Assembly: GCA_002215675.1 (NCBI GenBank)
Contig: NGFH01000002.1
Location: 221,887-285,886 of the forward strand
Reading direction: 5' to 3'
Source: Bacteroidetes bacterium 2013_40CM_41_45
GTDB taxonomy: Bacteria > Bacteroidota > Bacteroidia > AKYH767-A > 2013-40CM-41-45
Length of the DNA: 64,000 nt
Position 1 is the stretch's first letter. Every line of letters starts with the position of its first letter. The notes below the pieces were generated by a model. That model saw only the letters and a list, made by a program, of their open reading frames with translations, made no database searches and was not told where the DNA came from. Below are positions 3,327 through 50,100 of this stretch, piece after piece. Position numbers and translations under genes: made by a program.

Positions 3327-4226
3327 CTATTGGCTGAATTTCACTTCTCCATACATACCTATTTTCAAAGCGCCATCGTTAGGAGTTTTTATTTTAATGG
3401 CGTAGACAAGATTCGCTCTCTCTTCTTTTGTCTGAATCGTTTTCGGAGTGAACTCTGCCTTGTCGCTAACCCATGAAATGGTTCCCTCATGCTCTTTATA
3501 TTTATCAGCGCCATCGTCTGTAAGCACTTTTACTTTTTGCGCAAGCTTGATTTGCGCAAGCTGGTCGCCCGTTATGTAAGCTCGCAGAAAAAGAAAAGAC
3601 AAATCGGCAATTTTGTAGAGAGGCTTTCCGGGTGCCGCTACTTCTTTTGCTTCAGCATATTTAGTTAGCACCGTTCCGTTTACAGGATTTATAATCCGGC
3701 ATTTTGCGAGCTGGTCGTTCACCTGTTCCATCTGAACTTTAATCGGTGCTGTTTGCTCGATTATGATGCGCTCTGAAACTCCAAATGATGATAGTTGCGC
3801 AGCGATTTGTTTTTTCAGCACTTCAACCTGGGCATTGATATCATCCATCTGCTTCTGTGTTCCTGCTCCTTCTTTTCGAAGATTAATGTAGCGCTCCTGA
3901 TCGTGTTCGGCAGTTTTTAATTGCTCCTGCAGTGCGGCAATTTGTGCAGGGATATCCGGCCTTCCGCTCAGGATGGCTTTGATTTGTTCCTCGAGTTGTT
4001 TTTTCTTCAGGTACAGTTGAACGCTGTCAATATATCCAACGACTTGCCCCGACTGCAAAACTTGTCCCTCTTCAATATCAAATTGCATGATGGTGCCGGC
4101 AACTTCAGAGGAAATAATGGTCTCCTCTGTTTCGAACGAACCTGATGCATCAAATTTTTTTTTGTTGCTATTGCATGATGCTGTTACAAGTAGTGTAAAA
4201 AGAATCAGCAGTTGATATTTTTTCAT
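3327..4226 (-). CDS. HlyD-family membrane fusion protein (lipoprotein) of the ABC exporter
   Basis: Lipoprotein-type signal MKKYQLLILFTLLVTASC, coiled-coil middle, biotin-lipoyl-like ends; ORF-track start at 4259 is a TTG extension, ATG at 4226 preferred. Confidence 0.75.
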   Translation of the reverse strand: MKKYQLLILFTLLVTASCNSNKKKFDASGSFETEETIISSEVAGTIMQFDIEEGQVLQSGQVVGYIDSVQLYLKKKQLEEQIKAILSGRPDIPAQIAALQEQLKTAEHDQERYINLRKEGAGTQKQMDDINAQVEVLKKQIAAQLSSFGVSERIIIEQTAPIKVQMEQVNDQLAKCRIINPVNGTVLTKYAEAKEVAAPGKPLYKIADLSFLFLRAYITGDQLAQIKLAQKVKVLTDDGADKYKEHEGTISWVSDKAEFTPKTIQTKEERANLVYAIKIKTPNDGALKIGMYGEVKFSQ

Positions 4227-26438: not shown

Positions 26439-27023
26439 ATGTATAATCACCTGTCGGGAAATATAACGCAGTTAAATCCGTCAATGGCAGTCATTGATTG
26501 TAACGGAGTAGGATATGTTTTGTCTATTTCTTTAAACTGCTATACTAAAATTAACGGAAAGAAAAATGCAACGCTTCTCACGCATCTCCAGGTTTCTGAA
26601 GATGCACATGTGCTATACGGATTTCACGATGAGCAAGAGCGCAGGTTATTCCGTCACTTACTTTCTGTATCCGGAATCGGGGCTAAAACAGCAATGGCAA
26701 TTATTTCATCTGCATCGCCTGACCTGATTATGCGTGCCATCATAACCGACAACGTGCAACAGCTTCAGACCTTAAAAGGAGTAAGCGAAAAAACAGCACA
26801 GAAGATTATAATAGAGCTGAAGAAAAAAATAAGCAAGGAAGATTTTCCTTCTGTGGCGATGCGTGAAAAAATCCCTTCGCGCGATGAGGCGCTTGCCGCA
26901 CTTTCCACACTTGGTTTTCCAAGAACCGTTTCCGAAAGGGCAGTGGACACGATTCTTTCATCGAACAACGGAAAAGAAATAGGAGTGGAGGAACTGCTAA
27001 AATTAGCATTGAAAAATATTTAG
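26439..27023 (+). CDS. ruvA: Holliday junction DNA helicase RuvA
   Basis: 194 aa; MYNHLSGNI.., HhH motifs LLSVSGIGAKTA, C-terminal domain III. Confidence 0.9.
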   Translation: MYNHLSGNITQLNPSMAVIDCNGVGYVLSISLNCYTKINGKKNATLLTHLQVSEDAHVLYGFHDEQERRLFRHLLSVSGIGAKTAMAIISSASPDLIMRAIITDNVQQLQTLKGVSEKTAQKIIIELKKKISKEDFPSVAMREKIPSRDEALAALSTLGFPRTVSERAVDTILSSNNGKEIGVEELLKLALKNI

Positions 27024-27037
27024 GAAAAAAATGTTCA

Positions 27038-27057
27038 CGCAAAGGCGCAAAGACGCG
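27038..27057. repeat. left arm of perfect 20-bp inverted repeat (cgcaaaggcgcaaagacgcg) bracketing GxxExxY gene
   Basis: Exact reverse complement of 27450-27469; 7 nt upstream of ATG 27065. Confidence 0.9.
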
Positions 27058-27064
27058 GAGAAAA

Positions 27065-27442
27065 ATGACGGAAAACGAAATATCTGCTGTGCTTGTAAAT
27101 ATGTTTCTAAAAATACATCGGCAGTTAAGGCCGGGATTATTGGAGTCAATTTATGAGGAAGTGATTTGCTACGAGTTAAGGAAGGCTGGCCTTGCATTTA
27201 AGAGACAGCAGGGAATGGTGGTGATGTATGACGAGCTAAAAATGGATTTAGGATTTCGTTCTGATGTTATTGTTGATGATAAAGTAATCATAGAAATAAA
27301 ATCAGTAGATATATTGGCACCTGTACATCATAAGCAATTGCTTACTTATCTTCGGCTTACGAATTTGAAATTGGGATTACTTGTGAATTTCAATGTCGAT
27401 TTAATTAAGAATGGAATAACCAGAATTGTAAATAACCTATGA
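27065..27442 (+). CDS. GxxExxY protein (PD-(D/E)XK nuclease superfamily)
   Basis: GLLESIYEE motif, ..DVIVDDKVIIEIK.. PD-(D/E)XK core; 125 aa. Confidence 0.85.
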   Translation: MTENEISAVLVNMFLKIHRQLRPGLLESIYEEVICYELRKAGLAFKRQQGMVVMYDELKMDLGFRSDVIVDDKVIIEIKSVDILAPVHHKQLLTYLRLTNLKLGLLVNFNVDLIKNGITRIVNNL

Positions 27443-27449
27443 GCGCCTT

Positions 27450-27469
27450 CGCGTCTTTGCGCCTTTGCG
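27450..27469. repeat. right arm of perfect 20-bp inverted repeat (cgcgtctttgcgcctttgcg)
   Basis: Reverse complement of 27038-27057; 7 nt downstream of stop. Confidence 0.9.
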
Positions 27470-27495
27470 AGAAATAAAAAAAACGGATAACCTTC

Positions 27496-30400
27496 ATGCT
27501 CAGAACAGCCGTAAAATATTTTACCATCATCTCTTTGGTTCTTTTTTTGTTGAACTGGGGATGGGCTGCCGTAAACAAGGGCATCACTTCAGCTTCAAAG
27601 TACAAAGAAATTTTCGGGCATAATTTTTCAGTGCGCCTTGATTCCGATACCACATCATTGCCCTATCCTTTCACAGACCGTTACGGAGATAAGTACGGTC
27701 CCACGCAAACCCAGCGCGATTTGTTTTTGCACGACCCTTCCAACGTAAAAGAAACTATAGAATATGACCCGAAGGAAGGCGTTTACAATATTGAAGAGCG
27801 GATGGGAAATCTTTTTTACCGTAATCCGTCTTACCTGACGTTTGATGAGTTTGTAGAAAACGAATTCCGCTCATCCACTAAAAAATACTGGCGCAACCGT
27901 TCTGAAGAAGGGGGAACTGCAAACAAGAAGGGACTGATACCCAAAATATTCGTTAAGAGCCAGGTCTTCGACCGCATTTTTGGCGGCAACACTATTGACA
28001 TCCGCCCGCAAGGCTCTGCGGAACTGACATTCGGAGTAAACATTTCGCGGAATGACAACCCCGCACTTCCCGAAAAGCAAAGGAAGATTACCACGTTCGA
28101 CTTCAAGGAAAAAATACAGATGAATGTGATTGGCAACATTGGTGACAAGATGAAGCTGCAGACCAATTACAACACAGAAGCGACTTTTGATTTCGAGAAT
28201 AAAATGAAACTGGAGTACACCGGTTACGAAGACGAAATCATAAAAAAGATTGAAGCCGGAAACGTAAGCCTGCCGCTGCGCGGAACGCTGATTACCGGTA
28301 GCCAGAGCTTGTTCGGGTTAAAAACAGAATTGCAGTTTGGACGAATGACCGTTACAAGTATTTTCTCCCAGCAAAAAGGCAAAACACAATCCGTAGATGT
28401 GCAGGGAGGGGCGCAGACGAGCTTCTTTGAAATAAAAGGCGACCAGTACGAAGCCAACCGGCACTATTTCCTGGCGCAGTATTTCCGCAACTTGTATGAC
28501 CACGCATTATCAAACTTGCCCATTGTGCAATCGGGGATTAACATTACAAGAATAGAAGTTTGGGTAACCAACCGCACAAGCGTTGTTGAAAACACGCGTG
28601 ATATTGTTGCGTTTATGGATTTGGGAGAATCGAACTTTGATACCAGCGCGCAACTTATCACTTCGTCAATTCCAAATTCTCCTCCCTTTGATAGTTCAAA
28701 CTCATTATATACAAACATAGCTAATAATATCAGTGGCGGCTTGTCAGCATTGCGTAACCTGAATCAATCTCCTGCCTTGACCGGACTAAATCATTTAAGC
28801 AATACATTCAATTTTACCGACCCCAAAAATGTTGTTACTGTAAACTTTGCAAGAAAACTTAACCCGAATGAGTTTACATTAAACAGCCGCCTCGGTTATA
28901 TTTCACTTAACCAGGCATTGAATGCCGATGAAGTTCTTGCCGTTGCCTTTGAATATACTTTGAACGGGCATACCTACCATGTGGGTGATTTTTCTACCGG
29001 AGGTATTAATGCTCCGCAAGCTTTATTTGTAAAGATGCTTAAGAGCACCAACGTTTCCACGAACCTGTTTACGTGGGACCTGATGATGAAAAATATTTAT
29101 TCATTGGGCACCTATAATCTCAGTAACCAGGATTTCCGGCTCGATGTTTTGTTTCTCGATGATAACATTGGTTCATACATCAATTATATTCCTGAAGGTT
29201 GTGCAAGCGCAAAGGGAGTTCCATTGCTCACGCTCTTCAATATGGACCGCCTTAACTCCAACAACGACCAGCAACCCGATGGTGTTTTCGATTTTGTTGA
29301 CGGAGTAACGGTGAACCGCGCCAACGGAAGAATTATTTTCCCGGTGCTGGAGCCCTTTGGTGATTATCTGAAAGGCAAGTTTTGTAATGACACTATTCTT
29401 GCTTCGCGCTATTGCTACTTTGCATTGTACGATTCAACTAAAAGCAAAGCGCAGCAGCAGCCCGAAAAAAATAAATTCTTGCTCAAGGGAAGTTACCAGG
29501 GAAGTTCGGGTTCTGAAATTCCTTTGAACGCGGTAAATATTCCCGAGGGCTCGGTAAAGGTTACTGCCGGCGGTGTTCCGCTCACTGAAAATGTTGACTA
29601 CACCGTTGACTATACGCTGGGCCGGGTTAAAATCATCAATGCAGGATTGCTTAGCTCCAATGCTCCCATTCACGTATCGCTTGAAAGCAATGCGCTCTTC
29701 AGCATACAGACAAAAACACTTTTAGGGTCCCGGTTCGATTATACATTCAACAAGGACTTTGCCGTGGGAGGCACCATTATGCGCCTGTCCGAGCGGCCCC
29801 TCACCAATAAAATTACCATTGGTGACGAGCCCATTGCAAACACTATCTGGGGTGTTGACGGAACGTACCGTACTAGCTCGCGGCTTCTTACAAAGCTGGT
29901 AGACAGAATACCTTTCATCAATACAAAAGAAGAATCCAACATTACCTTCAACGGGGAATTTGCCGATTTAATACCGGGGCATTCAAAAGCAGTTGGGTCT
30001 ACCGGCACCTCTTATATCGATGATTTTGAAGGAAGCAAAACACCTATAGACATCAAGAGCCCATCGAGCTGGATTCTTTCCAGTACACCGCAGGGGCAGT
30101 TTCCCGAAGCAGATTATATTGACAGTTTGCCCTATGGCTTTAACCGCGCAAAACTTGCCTGGTATTATATAGACCCGCTTTTCCAGAAGCGCATCAACGG
30201 TGTGACACCGGATGCTCAATATCTTACAGATGACGACATGCGAAATCATTTTGTCCGTGAGATTCCTGAACAGGAAATTTTCCCCAACAAAGCAGTAAGG
30301 AATAATCAGCCTACAACATTAACCTGCCTTAATCTTGCCTTTTATCCTAAGGAAAGAGGTCCCTACAATTATGATATGAGTTCCACATCCATCAATCCCG

Positions 30401-33400
30401 ATGGTACACTCAAAAACCCCGACAAGCGCTGGGGAGGCATCATGCGCAAAATAGAACCTACCGACTTTGAAGCATCTAACATAGAGTTTATTGAGTTCTG
30501 GCTGATGGACCCGTTTAATTCTGATTACGGCCCGGGAACCAATACACCGGGAGGCGATTTGTATTTCAACCTTGGAAATATTTCCGAGGATATTCTTAAA
30601 GACGGAAGAAAGAGTTTCGAGAACGGATTACCTGCCGTTACCAATAATAACACTACCGACTCGACCGTGTGGGGGGTAGTCCCGGTTATCCAATCTATTG
30701 TCCAGGCATTTGATAACAGCGAAGCAGCAAGAAAACAGCAGGATGTGGGGTTGGATGGGTTATCTGATGCTAATGAACAAAGCTACTTTGGCCCGGTTGT
30801 AAATGCTGCTCAGGGTGTTTTAAATGCATCTGCATATGATGCATACAGAGCAGACCCATCGTCTGATGATTACAATTATTTCCGCTCCACCGCATATGAC
30901 CAAGCAAAATTAAAACCGCTGGAGCGTTATAAAAGATATAACGGTATGGAAGGCAATTCTCCAACACCTCAGGATTATCCTGACGGCTATCCTACCGTGG
31001 CTACAAACATTCCCGATGCGGAAGACATTAACCGCGACAATACGCTGAGCAAGGAAGAAAATTATTACCAGTATAAAATTGAAATAAAACCCGGCAGTAT
31101 GGTAGTGGGGCAGAATTTTATTACGGATATGATTGAAACACCTGTTTCAAATAAGACGGCTATTAAATGGTATCATTTTAAAGTTCCTCTCAAGAGCCCG
31201 GAATCCACATTCGGCAACATTGAAGATTTTAAGTCCATACGCTTTGCACGGATGTACCTGAGGGATTTTTCCGACTCCATCCTTCTGCGATTTGCCCGCC
31301 TGGATTTGGTAAGAAGCGAATGGAGAAAGTACGAGAATTCTCTTCTTGCTCCCGGTGAATCGGTAAACCCCAATACAGGAACAATGTTTGATGTTTCAAC
31401 CGTAAACATCGAAGAAAATGGGCAGCGTTCGCCCGTAAACTATGTTCTCCCTCCCGGAATAGCACGGGAAACCGACATCAGCACCACTAACCTTGCGCAG
31501 CTCAATGAACAATCACTCTCGCTCAAAGTGTGCGACCTTGAGGACGGAGATGCACGTGCTACATACAAGACCACACAGTTTGATGTACGTACCTATAAGC
31601 GTATTAAGATGTACATACATGCTGAGTCGCTCATTGGAAGCGTCCCCTTGCAGGATGGAGAACTCTCAGCTTTTATCCGCCTGGGTAGCGACTTCACCGG
31701 AAACTTTTACGAGTACGAAGTGCCTCTTTATGTTACAGCACCCGGCGCCACATCGCCCGATGCAATCTGGCCGTCGGGAAATTTAATAGACCTTGAAACC
31801 AGCAAGCTGATTAATGCCAAGCTGCAGCGCAATTCCATTAGCTGGAGCAGGACGGCGCCCTTTATTCTTTCTGACGGAAGAAATAAAATAACGGTGATGG
31901 GTAACCCCAACCTGAGCGGCATACGTGTAATTATGATTGGTGTGAGAAACATAAAAGACGGAGGGCTCTCCAAGTGCGGTGAAGTCTGGGTAGATGAGTT
32001 GCGGGTAACTGACTTTGACGAAAGCGGGGGCTGGGCGGCCAACATGCGCATCAATGCACAGCTTGCCGATTTTGGAACGGTGGCGGTGGTTGGAAACCGA
32101 AGTACCATTGGATGGGGTTCCATTGAACAGAAAGTAGGAGAGAGGAAAAAAGAGGACAATATATCATACGACATTTCCACAAGCCTGGAACTCGGGAAAT
32201 TTTTCCCGGAAAAAATCGGCCTGAAAATTCCAATGTATTTTGGTTATGCCGAGTCATTTACTAATCCGCAGTATAATCCGCTGGACCCCGATGTGCTTTT
32301 CAACAATGCTCTCGATGCGGCACCTAATCCTGAATACCGAGACTCTATTAAAAGGGCGGTGCAGGATTATACGCAGCGAAAGAGTGTGAACTTTACCAAT
32401 GTGCGAAAAATTAAAGGCGCTGGAAAGTCTGCAAGCCGGGTGTATGATATAGAGAATTTTAATTTCACGTATTCATACAATGAAATATACAACCGCAACA
32501 TTACCACGCAATATAAAACAGCCAAAACATACCGGGGAGCTGTGGGATACAATTTCTCAACTAAAGTAAGTTCCTTCAGCCCTTTTGGTAAGATGGCAGG
32601 TAAGTCGCCCTATCTGAAGCTCATTAAAGATTTTAATATCAATTATGTTCCGCTGACCAATTTTTCATTCCGCACAGATGTGGACAGGGCATATGCGGAA
32701 ACACAGCTTCGCAATAACAATGTGGGATTGGTGTATACCCAACCGCCGACTTTCGATAAATCGTTTACCATGAACCGGCTCTATGATGTGAAGCTTGATT
32801 TAACGCGCTCCATTAAAATTGACTTCAGCGCCACAGCCAACGCACGCATTGACGAACCGCCCGGCAAGATTGATGACACAGAGATTCGACCCGGATTTAC
32901 AAAGAGAGATTCGGTACGGCAAAATTTCTGGAACCTGGGACGGCTTACCCAATACAGGCATTCGGCCAGTGCAGATTATACGGTGCCGTTTTCCAAGTTC
33001 CCGCTTACCGACTGGGTTACCCTTCCCTTAAAATACACTGCTGACTATAACTGGACTTCGGCCCCACTGCAGTACGATTCAACAACGACAGGCTACAAGC
33101 CCAATTCGCTGGCAAATACAATTTCAAATTCTCAAACCATACAGGTAAGCCCCAATGTGAATTTTGTAACGCTTTATAATAAGGTTCCGTTCCTGAAAAA
33201 GGTCAATCAGCCCTCAGCTCCACCCATCAAACAACCCAAACCGGCTGTACCTAAAAATCCGAACGATACTACCAAGGCAAAAATCCCTGCCCCGAAAGTT
33301 CCCAAGCCCAAAACCATTTCTCCGGTTGTAAAAGGATTTTTCAGAACGCTGATGAGTATACGCACAGCCAGTGTTACTTACAGCGAGACCAATGGAACAC

Positions 33401-34647
33401 TTTTACCCGGATTTAAACCCGAACCCGAATACCTGGGACAGAACTGGGGAAATCCCAATGCACCCGGAACAGGTTTTATTTTCGGAAGCCAGGCGGATAT
33501 TCGTCCCCGAGCTATTGCAAATAACTGGATAACTACCGATACCACGCTCAACAACGCTTATGTTACCACGCAACTTAAAAATCTCTCGGGCCGGATGACC
33601 GTGGAGCCGTTCAGGAATTTTAAAATCGAGCTGAATGCTACAAGAAATTATTCGCTCAATCATCAGGAATATTTCCGCTCCGATGGGGCAGGAGGGTTCC
33701 ATTCATTCAGTCCGACTGAAAGCGGCAACTATACGGTCTCGTGGCTCAGCTACAGAACATCTTTTGTAAAAGATGCAACTGATTATTCCAATGCAACCTT
33801 TACCCAGTTCGACCGCAACCGTACCGTTTTTTCACAGCGTCTTGGCGGCGGCGGCAACGGTTATGGCTTGACTCAACAGGATGTACTGACCTATTCGTTC
33901 CTTGCTGCATATACCGGTAGCGATGCGTCAACATTTAAGATGGACCAGTTTCCGAAAATCCCTAAACCCAACTGGAGAATAACCTATGACGGGCTGGGCA
34001 AATTAAAATGGGCGCAGCAATATGTAACGCAGGTTAACCTGAATCATTCTTACAAATCCACCTACAGTGTAAACTCATTTATTCAGAACCTTCCCTGGGT
34101 AGATTCTGAAGGGCAGGCAACCGATGTAAACGGAAACCTGATTCCGCGGTATGACATACAACAGCTTACCATTACCGAACAATGGGGGCCGCTGATTGGT
34201 ATTGACATAACATGGAAAAACAGTTTGCAAACTCGTGCGGAGGTAAAACGCGACCGCACCGTTTCGTTAAGCTATTCCAACATACAGGTAACGGAAGTGC
34301 GCGGCAACGAATATGTAATCGGGGCAGGATACAGGATTAAAAACTTTAAACTGCCGTTCGGGCTGGGGGCAAAAAATAAATCGAAGAAAAACGACCTGAA
34401 CCTGAAAGCCGATTTCAGCTACAGAAATAATTACACCATTATCCGCCAGTTGATTCAGCATATTAACCAGCCATCACAGGGCAACAAAACACTGTCTATT
34501 AAAACATCGGCAGACTATGTGCTGAATGAACGGCTGAATGTTCGGCTGTTCTACGACCAAACCATTAACCAGCCGTTTGTATCATCTTCTTTCCCCACAT
34601 CAAATACAAATATTGGTTTAAGTTTGCGCTTTACAATAGCACAATAA
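27496..34647 (+). CDS. sprA: T9SS translocon / gliding motility protein SprA
   Basis: 2383 aa giant beta-barrel protein; conserved position between ruvA and gcvH. Confidence 0.9.
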   Translation: MLRTAVKYFTIISLVLFLLNWGWAAVNKGITSASKYKEIFGHNFSVRLDSDTTSLPYPFTDRYGDKYGPTQTQRDLFLHDPSNVKETIEYDPKEGVYNIEERMGNLFYRNPSYLTFDEFVENEFRSSTKKYWRNRSEEGGTANKKGLIPKIFVKSQVFDRIFGGNTIDIRPQGSAELTFGVNISRNDNPALPEKQRKITTFDFKEKIQMNVIGNIGDKMKLQTNYNTEATFDFENKMKLEYTGYEDEIIKKIEAGNVSLPLRGTLITGSQSLFGLKTELQFGRMTVTSIFSQQKGKTQSVDVQGGAQTSFFEIKGDQYEANRHYFLAQYFRNLYDHALSNLPIVQSGINITRIEVWVTNRTSVVENTRDIVAFMDLGESNFDTSAQLITSSIPNSPPFDSSNSLYTNIANNISGGLSALRNLNQSPALTGLNHLSNTFNFTDPKNVVTVNFARKLNPNEFTLNSRLGYISLNQALNADEVLAVAFEYTLNGHTYHVGDFSTGGINAPQALFVKMLKSTNVSTNLFTWDLMMKNIYSLGTYNLSNQDFRLDVLFLDDNIGSYINYIPEGCASAKGVPLLTLFNMDRLNSNNDQQPDGVFDFVDGVTVNRANGRIIFPVLEPFGDYLKGKFCNDTILASRYCYFALYDSTKSKAQQQPEKNKFLLKGSYQGSSGSEIPLNAVNIPEGSVKVTAGGVPLTENVDYTVDYTLGRVKIINAGLLSSNAPIHVSLESNALFSIQTKTLLGSRFDYTFNKDFAVGGTIMRLSERPLTNKITIGDEPIANTIWGVDGTYRTSSRLLTKLVDRIPFINTKEESNITFNGEFADLIPGHSKAVGSTGTSYIDDFEGSKTPIDIKSPSSWILSSTPQGQFPEADYIDSLPYGFNRAKLAWYYIDPLFQKRINGVTPDAQYLTDDDMRNHFVREIPEQEIFPNKAVRNNQPTTLTCLNLAFYPKERGPYNYDMSSTSINPDGTLKNPDKRWGGIMRKIEPTDFEASNIEFIEFWLMDPFNSDYGPGTNTPGGDLYFNLGNISEDILKDGRKSFENGLPAVTNNNTTDSTVWGVVPVIQSIVQAFDNSEAARKQQDVGLDGLSDANEQSYFGPVVNAAQGVLNASAYDAYRADPSSDDYNYFRSTAYDQAKLKPLERYKRYNGMEGNSPTPQDYPDGYPTVATNIPDAEDINRDNTLSKEENYYQYKIEIKPGSMVVGQNFITDMIETPVSNKTAIKWYHFKVPLKSPESTFGNIEDFKSIRFARMYLRDFSDSILLRFARLDLVRSEWRKYENSLLAPGESVNPNTGTMFDVSTVNIEENGQRSPVNYVLPPGIARETDISTTNLAQLNEQSLSLKVCDLEDGDARATYKTTQFDVRTYKRIKMYIHAESLIGSVPLQDGELSAFIRLGSDFTGNFYEYEVPLYVTAPGATSPDAIWPSGNLIDLETSKLINAKLQRNSISWSRTAPFILSDGRNKITVMGNPNLSGIRVIMIGVRNIKDGGLSKCGEVWVDELRVTDFDESGGWAANMRINAQLADFGTVAVVGNRSTIGWGSIEQKVGERKKEDNISYDISTSLELGKFFPEKIGLKIPMYFGYAESFTNPQYNPLDPDVLFNNALDAAPNPEYRDSIKRAVQDYTQRKSVNFTNVRKIKGAGKSASRVYDIENFNFTYSYNEIYNRNITTQYKTAKTYRGAVGYNFSTKVSSFSPFGKMAGKSPYLKLIKDFNINYVPLTNFSFRTDVDRAYAETQLRNNNVGLVYTQPPTFDKSFTMNRLYDVKLDLTRSIKIDFSATANARIDEPPGKIDDTEIRPGFTKRDSVRQNFWNLGRLTQYRHSASADYTVPFSKFPLTDWVTLPLKYTADYNWTSAPLQYDSTTTGYKPNSLANTISNSQTIQVSPNVNFVTLYNKVPFLKKVNQPSAPPIKQPKPAVPKNPNDTTKAKIPAPKVPKPKTISPVVKGFFRTLMSIRTASVTYSETNGTLLPGFKPEPEYLGQNWGNPNAPGTGFIFGSQADIRPRAIANNWITTDTTLNNAYVTTQLKNLSGRMTVEPFRNFKIELNATRNYSLNHQEYFRSDGAGGFHSFSPTESGNYTVSWLSYRTSFVKDATDYSNATFTQFDRNRTVFSQRLGGGGNGYGLTQQDVLTYSFLAAYTGSDASTFKMDQFPKIPKPNWRITYDGLGKLKWAQQYVTQVNLNHSYKSTYSVNSFIQNLPWVDSEGQATDVNGNLIPRYDIQQLTITEQWGPLIGIDITWKNSLQTRAEVKRDRTVSLSYSNIQVTEVRGNEYVIGAGYRIKNFKLPFGLGAKNKSKKNDLNLKADFSYRNNYTIIRQLIQHINQPSQGNKTLSIKTSADYVLNERLNVRLFYDQTINQPFVSSSFPTSNTNIGLSLRFTIAQ

Positions 34648-45630: not shown

Positions 45631-46104
45631 ATGAGAATCGGTTTTGGATTTGATGTTCATCCGCTTGAAAAAGGGAGAGAACTGCGTTTAGGTGGAATCA
45701 CCGTTCCGCATGACAAAGGCGCCAGGGGGCATTCTGATGCTGATGTATTGATTCATGCTATCTGCGATGCACTGCTGGGAGCGGCAAACCTGGGCGACAT
45801 AGGGAAACATTTTCCCGACACTTCGGCAGAATTCAAAAACATTGACAGCCGCATCCTGCTGAAAAAAGTTATGGAAATGATTCGCCAAAACAAATACGAT
45901 TTGGAAAACACGGACGTAACTCTTTGTCTTGAAAAACCAAAGATAGCACCGCATGTTGACGCCATAAAAAAATCTTTGTCAGAGGTTATGGGTGTTGACA
46001 TAAATTGCATTTCCATTAAGGCAACCACCAATGAAAAACTCGGCTACATCGGAAGGGAAGAAGGTGTTGCATGCTATGCGGTGGTGCTGCTGAAAAACAG
46101 GTAA
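45631..46104 (+). CDS. ispF: 2-C-methyl-D-erythritol 2,4-cyclodiphosphate synthase
   Basis: 157 aa; MRIGFGFDVHPL.., HSDADVLIHAICDALLGA. Confidence 0.9.
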   Translation: MRIGFGFDVHPLEKGRELRLGGITVPHDKGARGHSDADVLIHAICDALLGAANLGDIGKHFPDTSAEFKNIDSRILLKKVMEMIRQNKYDLENTDVTLCLEKPKIAPHVDAIKKSLSEVMGVDINCISIKATTNEKLGYIGREEGVACYAVVLLKNR

Positions 46105-46136
46105 TGTTTCAGTTTAATTTTCTTTGTGAACTCTAC

Positions 46137-46217
46137 GAAACGCTTTGCGAACTTTGCGTGAAATTTTCAAATGGTTCACGCGAAGATCGCAGAGAAAAAA
46201 TAGACGCAAAGCGCGCT
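46137..46217. repeat. cargo-less copy of the CTTTGCG/CGCAAAG inverted-repeat element
   Basis: acgctttgcgaactttgcgtgaa (46139-46162) ... gacgcaaagcgcgc (46203-46216); left arm is near-identical reverse complement of 27034-27057. Confidence 0.6.
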
Positions 46218-46254: not shown

Positions 46255-46728
46255 ATGAAAAAAGTACAGGTCATTTCAGAATTCAGTGAATATGTGTCAG
46301 CCGCGGAATTGCCGGTTGAGGAAAAAGAATTACTAACGAAAGCAGAAGCAGCGGCAAAAACTGCGTACGCCCCTTATTCAAAGTTTAAAGTTGGCGCTGC
46401 GGTGCTGCTCGATAACGGAGAAATAGTTTGTGGAAGCAACCAGGAAAATGCATCGTACCCATTGGGACTTTGTGCCGAGCGGGTTGCTTTGTTTGCTGCA
46501 TCGGCACAGCATCCCGGCATCCGGATTACGCACATAGCCGTAACATCTTCTTCAAAAAATCCTACGGCTCCGTGCGGTGCCTGCCGGCAGGTAATGGCAG
46601 AATATGAATCTGTTCATAAAAATGAAATGCAAATACTTCTAAAAGGAGCAGCAGGAAAAATTATAGCCGCGGATGGAGTAAAAAATTTGCTTCCCCTTAT
46701 GTTTTCAGGTAAAGATTTAAACGGATGA
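46255..46728 (+). CDS. cdd: cytidine deaminase
   Basis: CAERVALFAA .. PCGACRQ zinc-binding motifs; 157 aa. Confidence 0.85.
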   Translation: MKKVQVISEFSEYVSAAELPVEEKELLTKAEAAAKTAYAPYSKFKVGAAVLLDNGEIVCGSNQENASYPLGLCAERVALFAASAQHPGIRITHIAVTSSSKNPTAPCGACRQVMAEYESVHKNEMQILLKGAAGKIIAADGVKNLLPLMFSGKDLNG

Positions 46729-47656: not shown

Positions 47657-48652
47657 ATGGCGAAAAAATTATTTGGTAAAGATACCTACCTGAAGTGGTA
47701 CGAAAGCATGCTGCTGATGCGGAAATTTGAGGAGCGTGCAGGGCAGCTATATGGTATGCAGAAAATCCGTGGCTTCTGTCATCTTTATATAGGGCAGGAA
47801 GCGGTCGTTGCCGGTGCAATGACTGTTCTTCGTCCCGAAGATGCCATGATAACGGCCTATCGTGACCATGCACATGCCATTGCCAAAGGCATTCCTGCCA
47901 ATGCGGTGATGGCCGAACTCTACGGCAAAGCAACGGGATGTTCTAAAGGCAAGGGGGGGTCTATGCATATGTTTTCTAAAGAGCATCGCTTTTTTGGCGG
48001 GCATGGAATTGTGGGCGGACAAATACCCCTCGGAGCGGGCATTGCTTTTGCAGAACAATATAAAGGTACCGACCATGTGTGCGTATGTTATATGGGCGAT
48101 GGCGCGGTGAGGCAGGGAGCATTTCACGAAACACTCAATATGGCAATGTACTGGAAGCTGCCGGTGATTTTTATTATTGAAAATAATAACTATGCCATGG
48201 GTACATCAGTGGAACGCAGCAGCAACGTTACTGACCTTTACAAGCTTGGGGCCGCTTATGACATGCCTTCAGAACATGTTGACGGAATGAGCGTGGAAGA
48301 TGTGCAGCTTGCGATGGAAAAAGTTGTGGAATATGTCCGCAGCGGCAAAGGACCGTACTTGCTGGAAATGCGAACGTATCGCTACAAAGGACATTCCATG
48401 AGCGACCCTGCAAAGTATCGTACCAAAGAAGAAGTGGAGCATTACAAAGCCGAGGACCCGATTGATACGGTACTGAAAACCATCACGGAGAAAAAACTTG
48501 CAACGGAAAAAGAAATTGAATCAATTAACGAGCGCGTAAAAAATGTTGTGGAAGAAGCAGTAAAGTTTTCAGAGGAATCTCCATTCCCTGATGCAAGCGC
48601 GGTTTACGAAGATGTTTATGTAGAATCAGATTATCCATTTATACTTGACTGA
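47657..48652 (+). CDS. pdhA: pyruvate dehydrogenase E1 component alpha subunit
   Basis: 331 aa; TPP-binding GDGA..N motif, YRDHAHA, GGHGIVG. Confidence 0.9.
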   Translation: MAKKLFGKDTYLKWYESMLLMRKFEERAGQLYGMQKIRGFCHLYIGQEAVVAGAMTVLRPEDAMITAYRDHAHAIAKGIPANAVMAELYGKATGCSKGKGGSMHMFSKEHRFFGGHGIVGGQIPLGAGIAFAEQYKGTDHVCVCYMGDGAVRQGAFHETLNMAMYWKLPVIFIIENNNYAMGTSVERSSNVTDLYKLGAAYDMPSEHVDGMSVEDVQLAMEKVVEYVRSGKGPYLLEMRTYRYKGHSMSDPAKYRTKEEVEHYKAEDPIDTVLKTITEKKLATEKEIESINERVKNVVEEAVKFSEESPFPDASAVYEDVYVESDYPFILD

Positions 48653-48690
48653 AATTGATAATTAAAAAATAAACAGATTGTTAAAAATAA

Positions 48691-48747
48691 CCACAGAGAC
48701 ACGGAGACACAGGGGAAAAAATTCTCTGTGCCACTGTGCCTCTGTGG
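48691..48747 (+). other. imperfect ~23-bp-arm hairpin between pdhA and E2
   Basis: ccacagagacacggagacacagg / ctctgtgccactgtgcctctgtgg, outer 8 bp perfect. Confidence 0.4.
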
Positions 48748-48786
48748 TGAAAATTTTATAACATTTAATTTTTAATCCATTTATAA

Positions 48787-50100
48787 ATGGCTGAGATAGT
48801 TAGAATGCCCAAGATGAGCGACACCATGACAGAAGGTGTCGTTTCTAAATGGCATAAAAAAGTTGGTGATAAAGTAAAGACAGGCGACCTGGTTGCTGAT
48901 ATCGAAACCGACAAGGCTACTATGGAATTTGAATCGTACCAGGAGGGTGTGTTGCTTTACAGGGGCGTTGAAGAAGGACAGGCAGCTCCCGTTGATGGTG
49001 TGCTTGCCATACTGGGTAAGGAAGGAGAAGATTATGCGAAGCTCCTGGAAGAAGAAAAGAAAAAGGTAAGTGCAGTGCAACCCGAAGCAAAGCCGGAAGC
49101 AAAACAGGAAACCAAAAAAGAGGAGCCAAAACCAGAGCCACCAAAAAAGGAAGTTGAACAACCGAAAAAAGAAGTCGTTGCAGAGAAAAAAGTTCCGGAA
49201 CCGCAAGCATCTGCTCCGCAAACAACCGACACCGGATTAAAAGCCTCTCCGCTGGCGCGTAAGCTGGCAAGTGAAAAAGGAATCGACCTGAATTTTGTAA
49301 AAGGTACAGGCGACAACGGCAGAATTGTTAAACGTGATATAGACTGGTTCAAAGAAGGAAATATTGTTGCCGGAAGCTCGGCAGCTATGTCGGGTGCTGT
49401 TACCAAAGAAAGTTACCAGGATGTTACTGTTTCGCAGATGCGCAAAACCATTGCCAGGCGCCTGAGTGAAAGCAAGTTCACTTCCCCGCATTATTATCTT
49501 ACCATGGAGATAAACATGGACAATACCGTAAATGCGCGTGAGAATATAAACAGTGTGCTCGGTGTAAAAATATCTTTCAATGATATCATTATAAAAGCAG
49601 CAGCGGCCGCATTGCGGCAACATCCTAGGGTAAATGCTTCCTGGTATGGCGACTTTATCCGCATGCATGACCATATTCATATTGGCGTTGCAGTTGCCGT
49701 TGAAGATGGCTTGCTGGTACCTGTGGTTCGTTTTGCTGATTCAAAAACTCTTAGACAAATCAATGCGGAGGTAAAAGACCTTTCGCAGCGGGCTCGGGAT
49801 AAAAAACTTCAGCCCCACGATTGGGAAGGAAACACATTCACTATTTCTAATCTTGGAATGTATGGCATCGAAGAGTTCACTGCCATTATCAACCCTCCCG
49901 ACTCGTGCATTCTTGCCATAGGCGGCATTGAGCAGAAACCGGTGGTGAAAAATAATTTGATAGTACCGGGTAATATCATGAAAGTTACCATGAGCTGCGA
50001 CCACCGCGCTGTTGACGGTGCCACCGGGTCCGAATTTTTAAGGACTTTTAAAGGTTTAATGGAGAATCCGGTCATACTCCTTGGGCAGGCGTCCTTGTGA
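48787..50100 (+). CDS. dihydrolipoamide acetyltransferase (E2) of pyruvate dehydrogenase complex
   Basis: Lipoyl domain ETDKATMEFES, Ala/Pro/Lys linker, E3-binding domain, catalytic DHRAVDGA. Confidence 0.9.
   Translation: MAEIVRMPKMSDTMTEGVVSKWHKKVGDKVKTGDLVADIETDKATMEFESYQEGVLLYRGVEEGQAAPVDGVLAILGKEGEDYAKLLEEEKKKVSAVQPEAKPEAKQETKKEEPKPEPPKKEVEQPKKEVVAEKKVPEPQASAPQTTDTGLKASPLARKLASEKGIDLNFVKGTGDNGRIVKRDIDWFKEGNIVAGSSAAMSGAVTKESYQDVTVSQMRKTIARRLSESKFTSPHYYLTMEINMDNTVNARENINSVLGVKISFNDIIIKAAAAALRQHPRVNASWYGDFIRMHDHIHIGVAVAVEDGLLVPVVRFADSKTLRQINAEVKDLSQRARDKKLQPHDWEGNTFTISNLGMYGIEEFTAIINPPDSCILAIGGIEQKPVVKNNLIVPGNIMKVTMSCDHRAVDGATGSEFLRTFKGLMENPVILLGQASL

Follow-up and report, generated by a model that had tools for sequence, protein, structure and literature searches.

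A GxxExxY nuclease gene between covarying inverted octamer arrays forms a compact cassette at the ruvA-sprA junction of a Bacteroidota bacterium

Between the genes ruvA and sprA of Bacteroidetes bacterium 2013_40CM_41_45 lies a discrete cassette of ~440 bp, in which a 125-aa open reading frame (ORF) of the GxxExxY nuclease family is enclosed by inverted arrays of a short repeat unit, here called arms. The sequence analyzed is a stretch of 64,000 nucleotides of contig NGFH01000002.1 (the window, in whose numbering all coordinates below are given unless they belong to another locus). An earlier note on this DNA had described an exact 20-bp inverted repeat 7 nt from both the ATG and the stop codon of the GxxExxY ORF, two CGCAAAG units in each arm, and a position between ruvA and sprA. 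The sequence bears out each of these points and adds a third, degenerate unit per arm; the interval named in that note, 27034-27470, covers the feature, and profile matches confirm both neighbors (RuvA, TIGR00084, E 8.7e-56; SprA, PF14349, E 3.9e-202). The components are as follows.

26439-27023, + strand: ruvA, the upstream, co-oriented gene, ending 10 nt 5' of the left arm and the presumed source of read-through transcription (profile match)
27034-27060, + strand: left arm, TTCA followed by three 8-nt units, CGCAAAGG CGCAAAGA CGCGGAG (repeat search, shuffles)
27065-27442, + strand: the 125-aa GxxExxY/PDDEXK_3 ORF (profile matches, dN/dS 0.05-0.10)
27447-27473, + strand: right arm, CTTCGCG TCTTTGCG CCTTTGCG followed by AGAA, the reverse complement of the left arm (repeat search, shuffles)
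27496-34647, + strand: sprA, the downstream, co-oriented gene, starting 22 nt 3' of the right arm (profile match)

The exact 20-nt repeat, CGCAAAGGCGCAAAGACGCG, occupies 27038-27057 and its perfect reverse complement 27450-27469; a gap of 7 nt (27058-27064) separates the left copy from the ATG at 27065, and another of 7 nt (27443-27449) separates the TGA at 27440-27442 from the right copy. A repeat search lengthens the pair to 27 nt with 93% complementarity (27034-27060 and 27447-27473, with 386 nt between), and in the entire window no inverted repeat within 3 kb is longer. Read from the outside in, the arms are TTCA-CGCAAAGG-CGCAAAGA-CGCGGAG (left) and TTCT-CGCAAAGG-CGCAAAGA-CGCGAAG (right), that is, two CGCAAAG units and a degenerate third (CGCGGAG on the left, CGCGAAG on the right), and a Shine-Dalgarno (SD)-like GGAG lies inside the third unit of the left arm, 7 nt 5' of the ATG. 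When up to three mismatches are allowed, the 20-mer occurs at these two sites only in the 64 kb and in none of 100 dinucleotide-preserving shuffles. The ORF, at 34.7% GC, is AT-richer than its neighbors (41.5-45%).

The encoded protein is a minimal RecB/Cas4-like nuclease core with D...ExK and QxxxY intact; it lacks an iron-sulfur (Fe-S) module, because it has a single cysteine (C35). It matches PF13366 (PDDEXK_3; E 3.9e-36, 124.4 bits against a cutoff of 22) and TIGR04256 (GxxExxY; E 1.6e-38, 131.7 bits against a cutoff of 35), with the GxxExxY motif reading G24-L-L-E27-S-I-Y30. Among 26 homologs D67, E77, and K79 are invariant, as is Y95 of the QxxxY motif (Q91..Y95), while E27 is kept in at least 90%, and an AlphaFold2 (AF2) model shows the alpha-beta-beta-beta-alpha-beta core of the PD-(D/E)XK fold. 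The GxxExxY/PDDEXK_3 family is large, with 24,425 clusters at 50% identity (E<=1e-3), but the searchable literature mentions it only in passing, and it has no known function. A sequence search of the PDB returned no chain at E<=1, no homologs were found among 50,697 phage records, four were found among 72,556 plasmid records, and PHROGs gave a weak Cas4-like match only. Membership in a known anti-phage defense system was rejected, as the PADLOC models gave 0 families at E<=1. The likeness to Cas4 lies in the RecB-like nuclease core with QxxxY; unlike Cas4, the protein is only 125 aa long, has C35 as its sole cysteine instead of the four-cysteine Fe-S cluster module, and is encoded between ruvA and sprA with no cas context. 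Proteins of 266-295 aa, mostly 270-295, contain two GxxExxY stretches (P0241, P0242, P0245, P0249, and others) and may reflect either a fusion of tandem cassettes or read-through in gene calling.

When other members of the family are examined, the arms emerge as a sequence-conserved, family-wide feature, seen at GxxExxY genes of many phyla in contexts unrelated to one another. We sampled 80 GxxExxY loci from one-genome-per-species contigs of Bacteroidota, Acidobacteriota, Verrucomicrobiota, Cyanobacteria, Planctomycetota, Nitrospirota, Deltaproteobacteria, Chloroflexota, and others. In about half of these loci the upstream and downstream flanks (90-100 nt) share an inverted repeat with a score of 12 or more, where shuffles average ~6.4, and all such loci have a common arm motif of two or three 8-nt units, TCW-CGCAAAGN. 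Examples come from Verrucomicrobiia (TCACGCAAAGGCGCAAAGGCGCGAAGAA, 28 nt exact), Chroococcales (TGTCACGCAGAGGCGCAGAGGCGCAGAGAGT, 31 nt exact, at 1 nt from both start and stop codons), and Desulfobacteraceae (CTCACGCAAAGGCGCAAAGACGCTAA), and a homolog 77% identical to the protein of the window, located between genes for a haloacid dehalogenase (HAD) hydrolase and a glycosyltransferase, has the same arm type (TCTCGCAAAGACGCCAAGGCGCAAAG ... CTTGGCGTCTTTGCGCCTTGGCGAGA). A census of units at 83 genes gave CGCAAAG 160 times, CGCAGAG 34, CGCTAAG 33, CGCCAAG 24, CGCGAAG 18, and CACAGAG 7; most units have G or A as their eighth base, TC(A/T) marks the outer boundary, and with two or three units per arm the consensus becomes TC(A/T)-CGCAAAG(G/A) in tandem.

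The earlier note had suggested looking for CGCAAAG doublets beside other GxxExxY genes. With arms defined strictly, as two or more C[GA]CN[AGT]AG units in tandem, their density is 5.18/kb within 150 nt of the genes and 0.156/kb in the rest of the same loci, a 33-fold enrichment; arms are present on both sides of 44 of 82 genes, on one side of 20, and on neither side of 18. In many cassettes the arms stand 0-11 nt from the start and stop codons, and over all loci of the analysis, a sample biased toward the gene because most loci were retrieved through it, opposite arms closely enclose 36 ORFs, of which 31 are GxxExxY and the remaining five have nothing in common. The purine-rich (CGCAAAG) arm is upstream and CTTTGCG downstream in 26 genes, and the order is reversed in 6. 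Two protein specificities behind the two orders were considered and discarded, as protein identities are 0.59 within one order (A-A), 0.64 within the other (B-B), and 0.60 between them (A-B); neither arm order nor unit variant clusters by protein clade or follows the protein tree. In five of the loci (L016, L059, L073, L079, L080) the gene is flanked by several hairpins or arms at regular spacing (~158 nt in L016, ~234 nt in L079), resembling clusters of bacterial interspersed mosaic elements (BIMEs).

The two arms of one cassette covary. We aligned 23 cassettes by their outer boundary and shuffled arm partners among cassettes 500 times, a test that is inflated by kinship among the 23 sequences. 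Paired cells make up 87.3% against 79.3% in the shuffles, double-change cells number 55 against 19.2, and pairs varying on both sides number 15 against 9.4; for each of the three measures no shuffle of the 500 reaches the observed value. Pairing drops to 32-56% in slid controls, and the mean repeat score is 18.6 within cassettes compared with 12.2 across them. The same can be seen in individual comparisons: the arms of the window and of its ortholog in L005 are nearly identical, and the end of unit 2 is A:T in one and G:C in the other, a compensatory change, while in the orthologous pair L069 and L075 all three units of both arms have switched together, CGCAGAG in one corresponding to CGCAAAG in the other. 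These last two cassettes, from Chroococcales (L069) and Nostoc (L075), apparently occupy the same site, with homologous coding sequence on both flanks, and L075 has ~40 nt extra between the stop codon and the right arm.

The history of the insertion was traced by a RuvA protein search followed by contig look-ups, which yielded relatives with the gene order Por_Secre_tail protein, malic enzyme, ruvA, sprA. Grouped by RuvA identity, their junctions are as follows.

The window, L005, and L002 (RuvA identity 92%): spacers of 472, 460, and 551 nt, cassette present
L147 (RuvA identity 72-77%): ruvA-sprA spacer of 19 nt, no arms
L148 (RuvA identity 72-77%): ruvA-sprA spacer of 99 nt, no arms
L146 (RuvA identity 72-77%): spacer of 263 nt, an unrelated AT-rich tandem repeat, no arms
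L149 (RuvA identity 54%): ruvA-sprA spacer of 26 nt, no arms
L110/L118 (RuvA identity 42%): ruvA-sprA spacer of ~17 nt, no arms

The arrangement is therefore not universal: arm-free spacers of 17-99 nt turn up in the relatives in which the earlier note had proposed a check for empty sites. The junction of L146 has a different occupant (3589-3851), the AT-rich tandem repeat, among whose units is AAAATTTACYCWWGTAAAAA. Most hits of a metagenome scan with RuvA were Bacteroidales of the human gut at ~44% identity, lacking sprA; the scan yielded one distant empty junction, L110/L118. Elsewhere in the family, neither ruvA nor sprA is a neighbor in GxxExxY loci L006-L088. That the cassette is a mobile or recombination-delivered module, as the earlier note had supposed, thus survives testing, given these empty sites, the 77% homolog with the same arms in another context, and the dozens of arm-flanked homologs in other phyla.

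Across the three occupied lineages the ratio of nonsynonymous to synonymous substitution rates (dN/dS) of the GxxExxY gene is 0.05-0.10 at dS 0.9-1.5, and that of ruvA is 0.04-0.06 at similar dS. Over this distance the arms of the window and L005 have hardly changed. From the presence in three lineages, the dN/dS, and the dS, it follows that the cassette entered before the lineages split and has been under strong purifying selection; in other words, it was inserted into a short ruvA-sprA spacer in the ancestor of the lineage and then inherited vertically, and at this site it is old and not recently mobile. Long retention is also seen in the orthologous pairs L069/L075, L031/L044, and L048/L054. 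In L002 the arms have decayed and the gene is still under selection; the orthologous ATG is ATA there, and an upstream ATG within the degenerate left arm lengthens the ORF. The empty junctions have diverged too far for the boundaries of the insertion to be placed.

Hairpins of the same motif also exist without a gene, and at least one of them is an internally deleted cassette. This one, in L002 (1175-1262), lies directly upstream of a full cassette: it matches nt 3-42 of the cassette at 36 of 40 positions, including the first 8 nt of the ORF, and it also matches the last ~56 nt, comprising the end of the ORF (~12 nt) and the right arm. Because it aligns to both ends of the cassette, ORF ends included, we take it to be an internally deleted copy. 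Two gene-less copies occur in the window.

48690-48753, no strand assigned: gene-less hairpin of the CACAGAG variant, CACAGAGA CACGGAGA CACAGGGG, an 8-nt loop, then CTCTGTGC CACTGTGC CTCTGTGG
46131-46212, no strand assigned: degenerate gene-less copy in reverse arm order, CTTTGCGAACTTTGCGTGAA, 12 nt, then TTCACGCGAAGATCGCAGAG, with a further CGCAAAG

The first has three units per arm and a DNA fold z of -4.6, and lies in the 134 nt that separate two + strand ORFs (47657-48652 and 48787-50100); the second lies in the spacer between ispF (45631-46104) and cdd, a cytidine deaminase-like ORF (46255-46728).

Taken together, these observations lead us to suggest that the cassette is an undescribed, probably self-propagating mini-element. 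More specifically, we give roughly an even chance to the proposal that it is a compact, promoter-less selfish cassette of ~440 bp whose arms are recognized by its own nuclease, and that this recognition drives its spread or retention. The arms would be the cis-acting sites of the cassette, read as DNA (as duplex half-sites, a hairpin, or a cruciform) by the nuclease it encodes, and the nuclease would promote spread or retention. A candidate route is a homing-like break in uninterrupted hairpin copies that would be repaired from a gene-bearing copy; alternatively, the hairpin unit may be excised and inserted. Being promoter-less and co-oriented in the operon, the cassette would be transcribed by read-through from ruvA, and in the read-through RNA the arms may pair into a stem of ~23-26 bp that encloses the ORF and the SD-like GGAG. 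Such a stem would have the geometry of the ORF-bearing intervening sequences (IVSs) of 23S rRNA that are excised by RNase III, so that the cassette may at the same time be an IVS-like, RNase III-processable module.

Several results weigh against this proposal. The junctions lacking the cassette come from fairly distant relatives (RuvA 42-77% identical), no bare hairpin intermediate at ruvA-sprA was seen among the junctions found, no consistent target-site duplication was seen beside the arms of 27 cassettes, and the exact limits of the insertion could not be established. The cassette is old (dS ~1) and its gene shows housekeeping-like conservation, where a purely selfish homing endonuclease gene would be expected to have decayed. 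Arms are not recognizable on either side of 18 of 82 GxxExxY genes, and both arm orders occur with closely related proteins, which a single model of a dimer on a palindrome fails to explain. Many arms stand apart from any cassette: an arm 17-mer, CACGCAAAGGCGCAAAG, occurs 88 times in 74 IMG/VR contigs, none of which has a GxxExxY gene, and 56 of the 88 occurrences have no partner arm within 2 kb. Besides the kinship that inflates the shuffle test, covariation could arise from template-switch correction of quasi-palindromes, without selection. Finally, no activity is known for any GxxExxY protein, and contact of the nuclease with the arms is inferred only.

The first alternative is that the cassette is a purely RNA-level, IVS-like module, in which the arms serve only to form a double-stranded stem in a read-through transcript, with no DNA role and no recognition by the nuclease. 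The stem would then allow RNase III excision from the operon mRNA, protect the ends of the excised mRNA, or mask the SD-like GGAG. We consider this rather unlikely, with the following in its favor. The arms, at 0-11 nt from start and stop in many cassettes, leave no space for a promoter; here the 7 nt that separate the arm from the ATG are too few for one, and a scan for sigma-70-like promoters, which does not extend to those of the Bacteroidota type, found none between ruvA and the ORF. The upstream neighbor is co-oriented with the GxxExxY gene in 58 of 71 cases (p 6e-8). In the RNA of the full ruvA-sprA spacer a long-range stem appears in both the minimum free energy (MFE) and the centroid folds (z -5.1); it is predicted to have 23 bp plus 3 further pairs, to enclose the whole ORF, and to cover the GGAG. 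The other reading of the earlier note, a long stem formed by the transcript with the ORF inside it, thus also stands as a prediction. The Coxiella IVS, which is cut by RNase III, is a close architectural precedent, and the four-helix-bundle cassettes described below have the same layout with other units, which shows that in that family complementarity outweighs the particular sequence. The promoter gap, the co-orientation, and the predicted fold are consistent with read-through transcription and a panhandle RNA.

What argues for a constraint at the DNA level, and against an exclusively RNA-level role, is the behavior of the arm sequence itself. The CGCAAAG-type sequence is kept across phyla even though the proteins are only 50-60% identical, whereas a bare stem could drift. 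Mismatches on the sense strand are of the G.U type 37 times and of the A.C type 42 times, so G.U is not favored, and the asymmetry that we sought as a signature of selection on the sense RNA is absent. The lack of a G.U preference and the cross-phylum conservation together suggest that the arm motif is recognized by a conserved factor, and the sole gene that travels with the arms is that of the nuclease. In addition, gene-less hairpins and single arms are found where no ORF needs processing, and in L002 the gene is still under selection with its arms decayed.

The second alternative, to which we assign a clearly lower probability and which we regard as improbable, holds that the arms belong to an independent, generic family of hairpins, similar to repetitive extragenic palindromic (REP) sequences or terminators, and that GxxExxY genes insert or survive there as in a landing pad. 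The IMG/VR contigs lend it weight, since the 17-mer occurs in 74 of them without a GxxExxY gene. It is part of a short hairpin (loops of 16-143 nt) in 15 of the 88 occurrences; in another 10 it has a partner 150-2000 nt away, enclosing unrelated small ORFs, and in 7 a reverse-order partner only. The two gene-less copies within the 64-kb window, the occurrence of both arm orders, and the complex multi-hairpin arrays around genes in L016, L080, L059, and L073 point the same way. Four putatively viral, GC-rich IMG/VR contigs (L167, L168, L173, L190) have 8-13 arms per 12-15 kb between genes, and no GxxExxY gene was found in them. On the other hand, the empty ruvA-sprA junctions have no hairpin, the sole gene-less hairpin whose origin can be traced, that of L002, is a deleted cassette with ORF ends, and 31 of the 36 tightly bracketed ORFs, in a sample biased toward this gene, are GxxExxY. 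The earlier note had reasoned that a repeat flanking many unrelated genes would speak for a generic element; the motif is instead concentrated 33-fold at GxxExxY genes and rare elsewhere in the same loci, and the arms in the 74 IMG/VR loci enclose no recurrent alternative cargo.

Chance, in the form of a GC-rich, low-complexity repeat present by coincidence in opposite orientations on the two sides of a small ORF, has nothing beyond the shortness of the repeat unit in its favor and is refuted to the point of being negligible by the absence of the pair from all 100 shuffles, the recurrence of the motif around homologs in dozens of unrelated genomes, and the arm enrichment at GxxExxY genes.

Among known systems, the 23S rRNA IVS of Coxiella and Leptospira, with its S23p or four-helix-bundle ORF, is the closest precedent of the cassette. 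The Coxiella IVS is 428-444 nt long and is closed by a terminal stem of 28 bp; its loop holds an S23p ORF, with GACAGAT heptamers in tandem 5' of the ATG. Excision of this IVS by RNase III has been demonstrated, and its expression needs the host transcript (PMC4990558). The cassette shares the size (~430-440 nt), terminal inverted repeats that form a stem of 23-28 bp (predicted in the cassette), an ORF of ~120 aa in the loop, short tandem repeats just 5' of the ATG, and the lack of a promoter of its own. It differs in lying between protein-coding genes and not in rRNA, in its cargo, which is a PD-(D/E)XK nuclease and not a four-helix bundle, and in its arms, which across phyla belong to one octamer family (CRCNRAG), whereas S23p cassettes use many units. 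Consistent with the first difference, 0 of 83 GxxExxY loci (L006-L088) match a 23S rRNA probe from the flanks of the Azospirillum IVS locus L234, and Rfam gave no family at gathering thresholds in the window and nothing meaningful at E<=10 around the cassette.

For comparison we examined 12 plasmid genes for four-helix-bundle (23S IVS) proteins (L225-L236). Eight of them are bracketed by inverted arrays of 7-8-nt units that differ between loci (GGGTGTA/TACACCC, GGGAGTA/TACTCCC, GGGAAAA/TTTTCCC, GGAGATAA/TTATCTCC, and AAGGTTCA/TGAACCTT among them), including the true 23S rRNA IVS of L234; two have direct arrays and two are unclear. Several of the genes sit inside operons, with cas6-cas4, cas10-cmr3, or ribonucleotide reductase genes. 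A previous paper recorded 18 such genes (23S_rRNA_IVP) at cas loci and took the two to be possibly associated (PMC3936711). The architecture is common to GxxExxY and four-helix-bundle cassettes, the former using one family of units and the latter many.

Other elements resemble the cassette in part. Like REP sequences and BIMEs with their REP-associated tyrosine transposases (RAYTs), it has a small nuclease-type gene that is flanked by inverted copies of a short repeat also found as gene-less hairpins elsewhere in the 64 kb, and the gene is vertically inherited and kept under selection. Its protein is PD-(D/E)XK and not HUH/Y1, however, with PDDEXK_3 as the only Pfam match; the arm is a tandem 8-mer array and not a self-palindromic REP, gene-less copies are sparse (one or two further per 64 kb), and GxxExxY genes are multi-copy and found in diverse contexts, whereas RAYTs are usually single-copy. 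With free-standing homing endonuclease genes and pairs of miniature inverted-repeat transposable elements (MITEs) and autonomous elements it has in common presence or absence at a conserved junction, a nuclease gene, and gene-less derivatives that keep the termini; it differs in encoding a protein of no known homing-endonuclease or transposase family, in having no target-site duplication that could be found, and in its long purifying selection at a fixed site. The arms are like the terminal inverted repeats (TIRs) of transposons and MITEs, and no consistent target-site duplication was seen next to them in the 27 cassettes. An integron gene cassette was rejected on account of repeats on both sides of the ORF, the lack of a GTTRRRY core, and the presence of one cassette only, and no integrase was found between 24 and 36 kb of the window. 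The arms are not an intrinsic terminator, as they are 386 nt apart and an A run, not a T run, follows the right arm; the sole terminator-like call is a 7-bp minus-strand stem in the left arm, no more than shuffles give. A type III toxin-antitoxin system was rejected on anatomy. Full membership in Cas4, IVS, RAYT, integron cassettes, terminators, or known defense systems fails in each case on at least one defining feature.

A broader proposal, which we put forward as tentative and hold to be possible without thinking it likely, is that the GxxExxY and S23p/Avd-like four-helix-bundle cassettes form an unrecognized class of minimal mobile elements, 'hairpin cassettes'. In such a class, the gene for a ~120-aa protein acting on nucleic acid would sit in the loop of a hairpin built of tandem 7-8-nt units, and the protein would recognize its own arms and home into, or copy between, gene-less hairpins. 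If this is true, ORF-bearing 23S rRNA IVSs would be a special landing site of the class, which would give the IVSs an origin and would provide a role for a protein family of 24,000 clusters and unknown function. No description of a GxxExxY hairpin cassette was found in the searchable literature, a scope outside which the curators' notes to TIGR04256 fall.

The shared architecture links the long-unexplained IVSs of rRNA to a wider class of cassettes that dwell in operons. It also calls for caution in reading genomic neighborhoods, as such genes inside cas or other operons are not necessarily functional partners of the genes around them (compare the 23S_rRNA_IVP suggestion in PMC3936711). A nuclease of 125 aa with a repeated 8-nt recognition module, as inferred here, may also be of use as a tool. 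Most directly, a cis element that travels with the gene, arms that covary, empty sites, and deletion derivatives together turn a hypothetical nuclease into a concrete and testable hypothesis, that of a protein with a defined DNA or RNA substrate.

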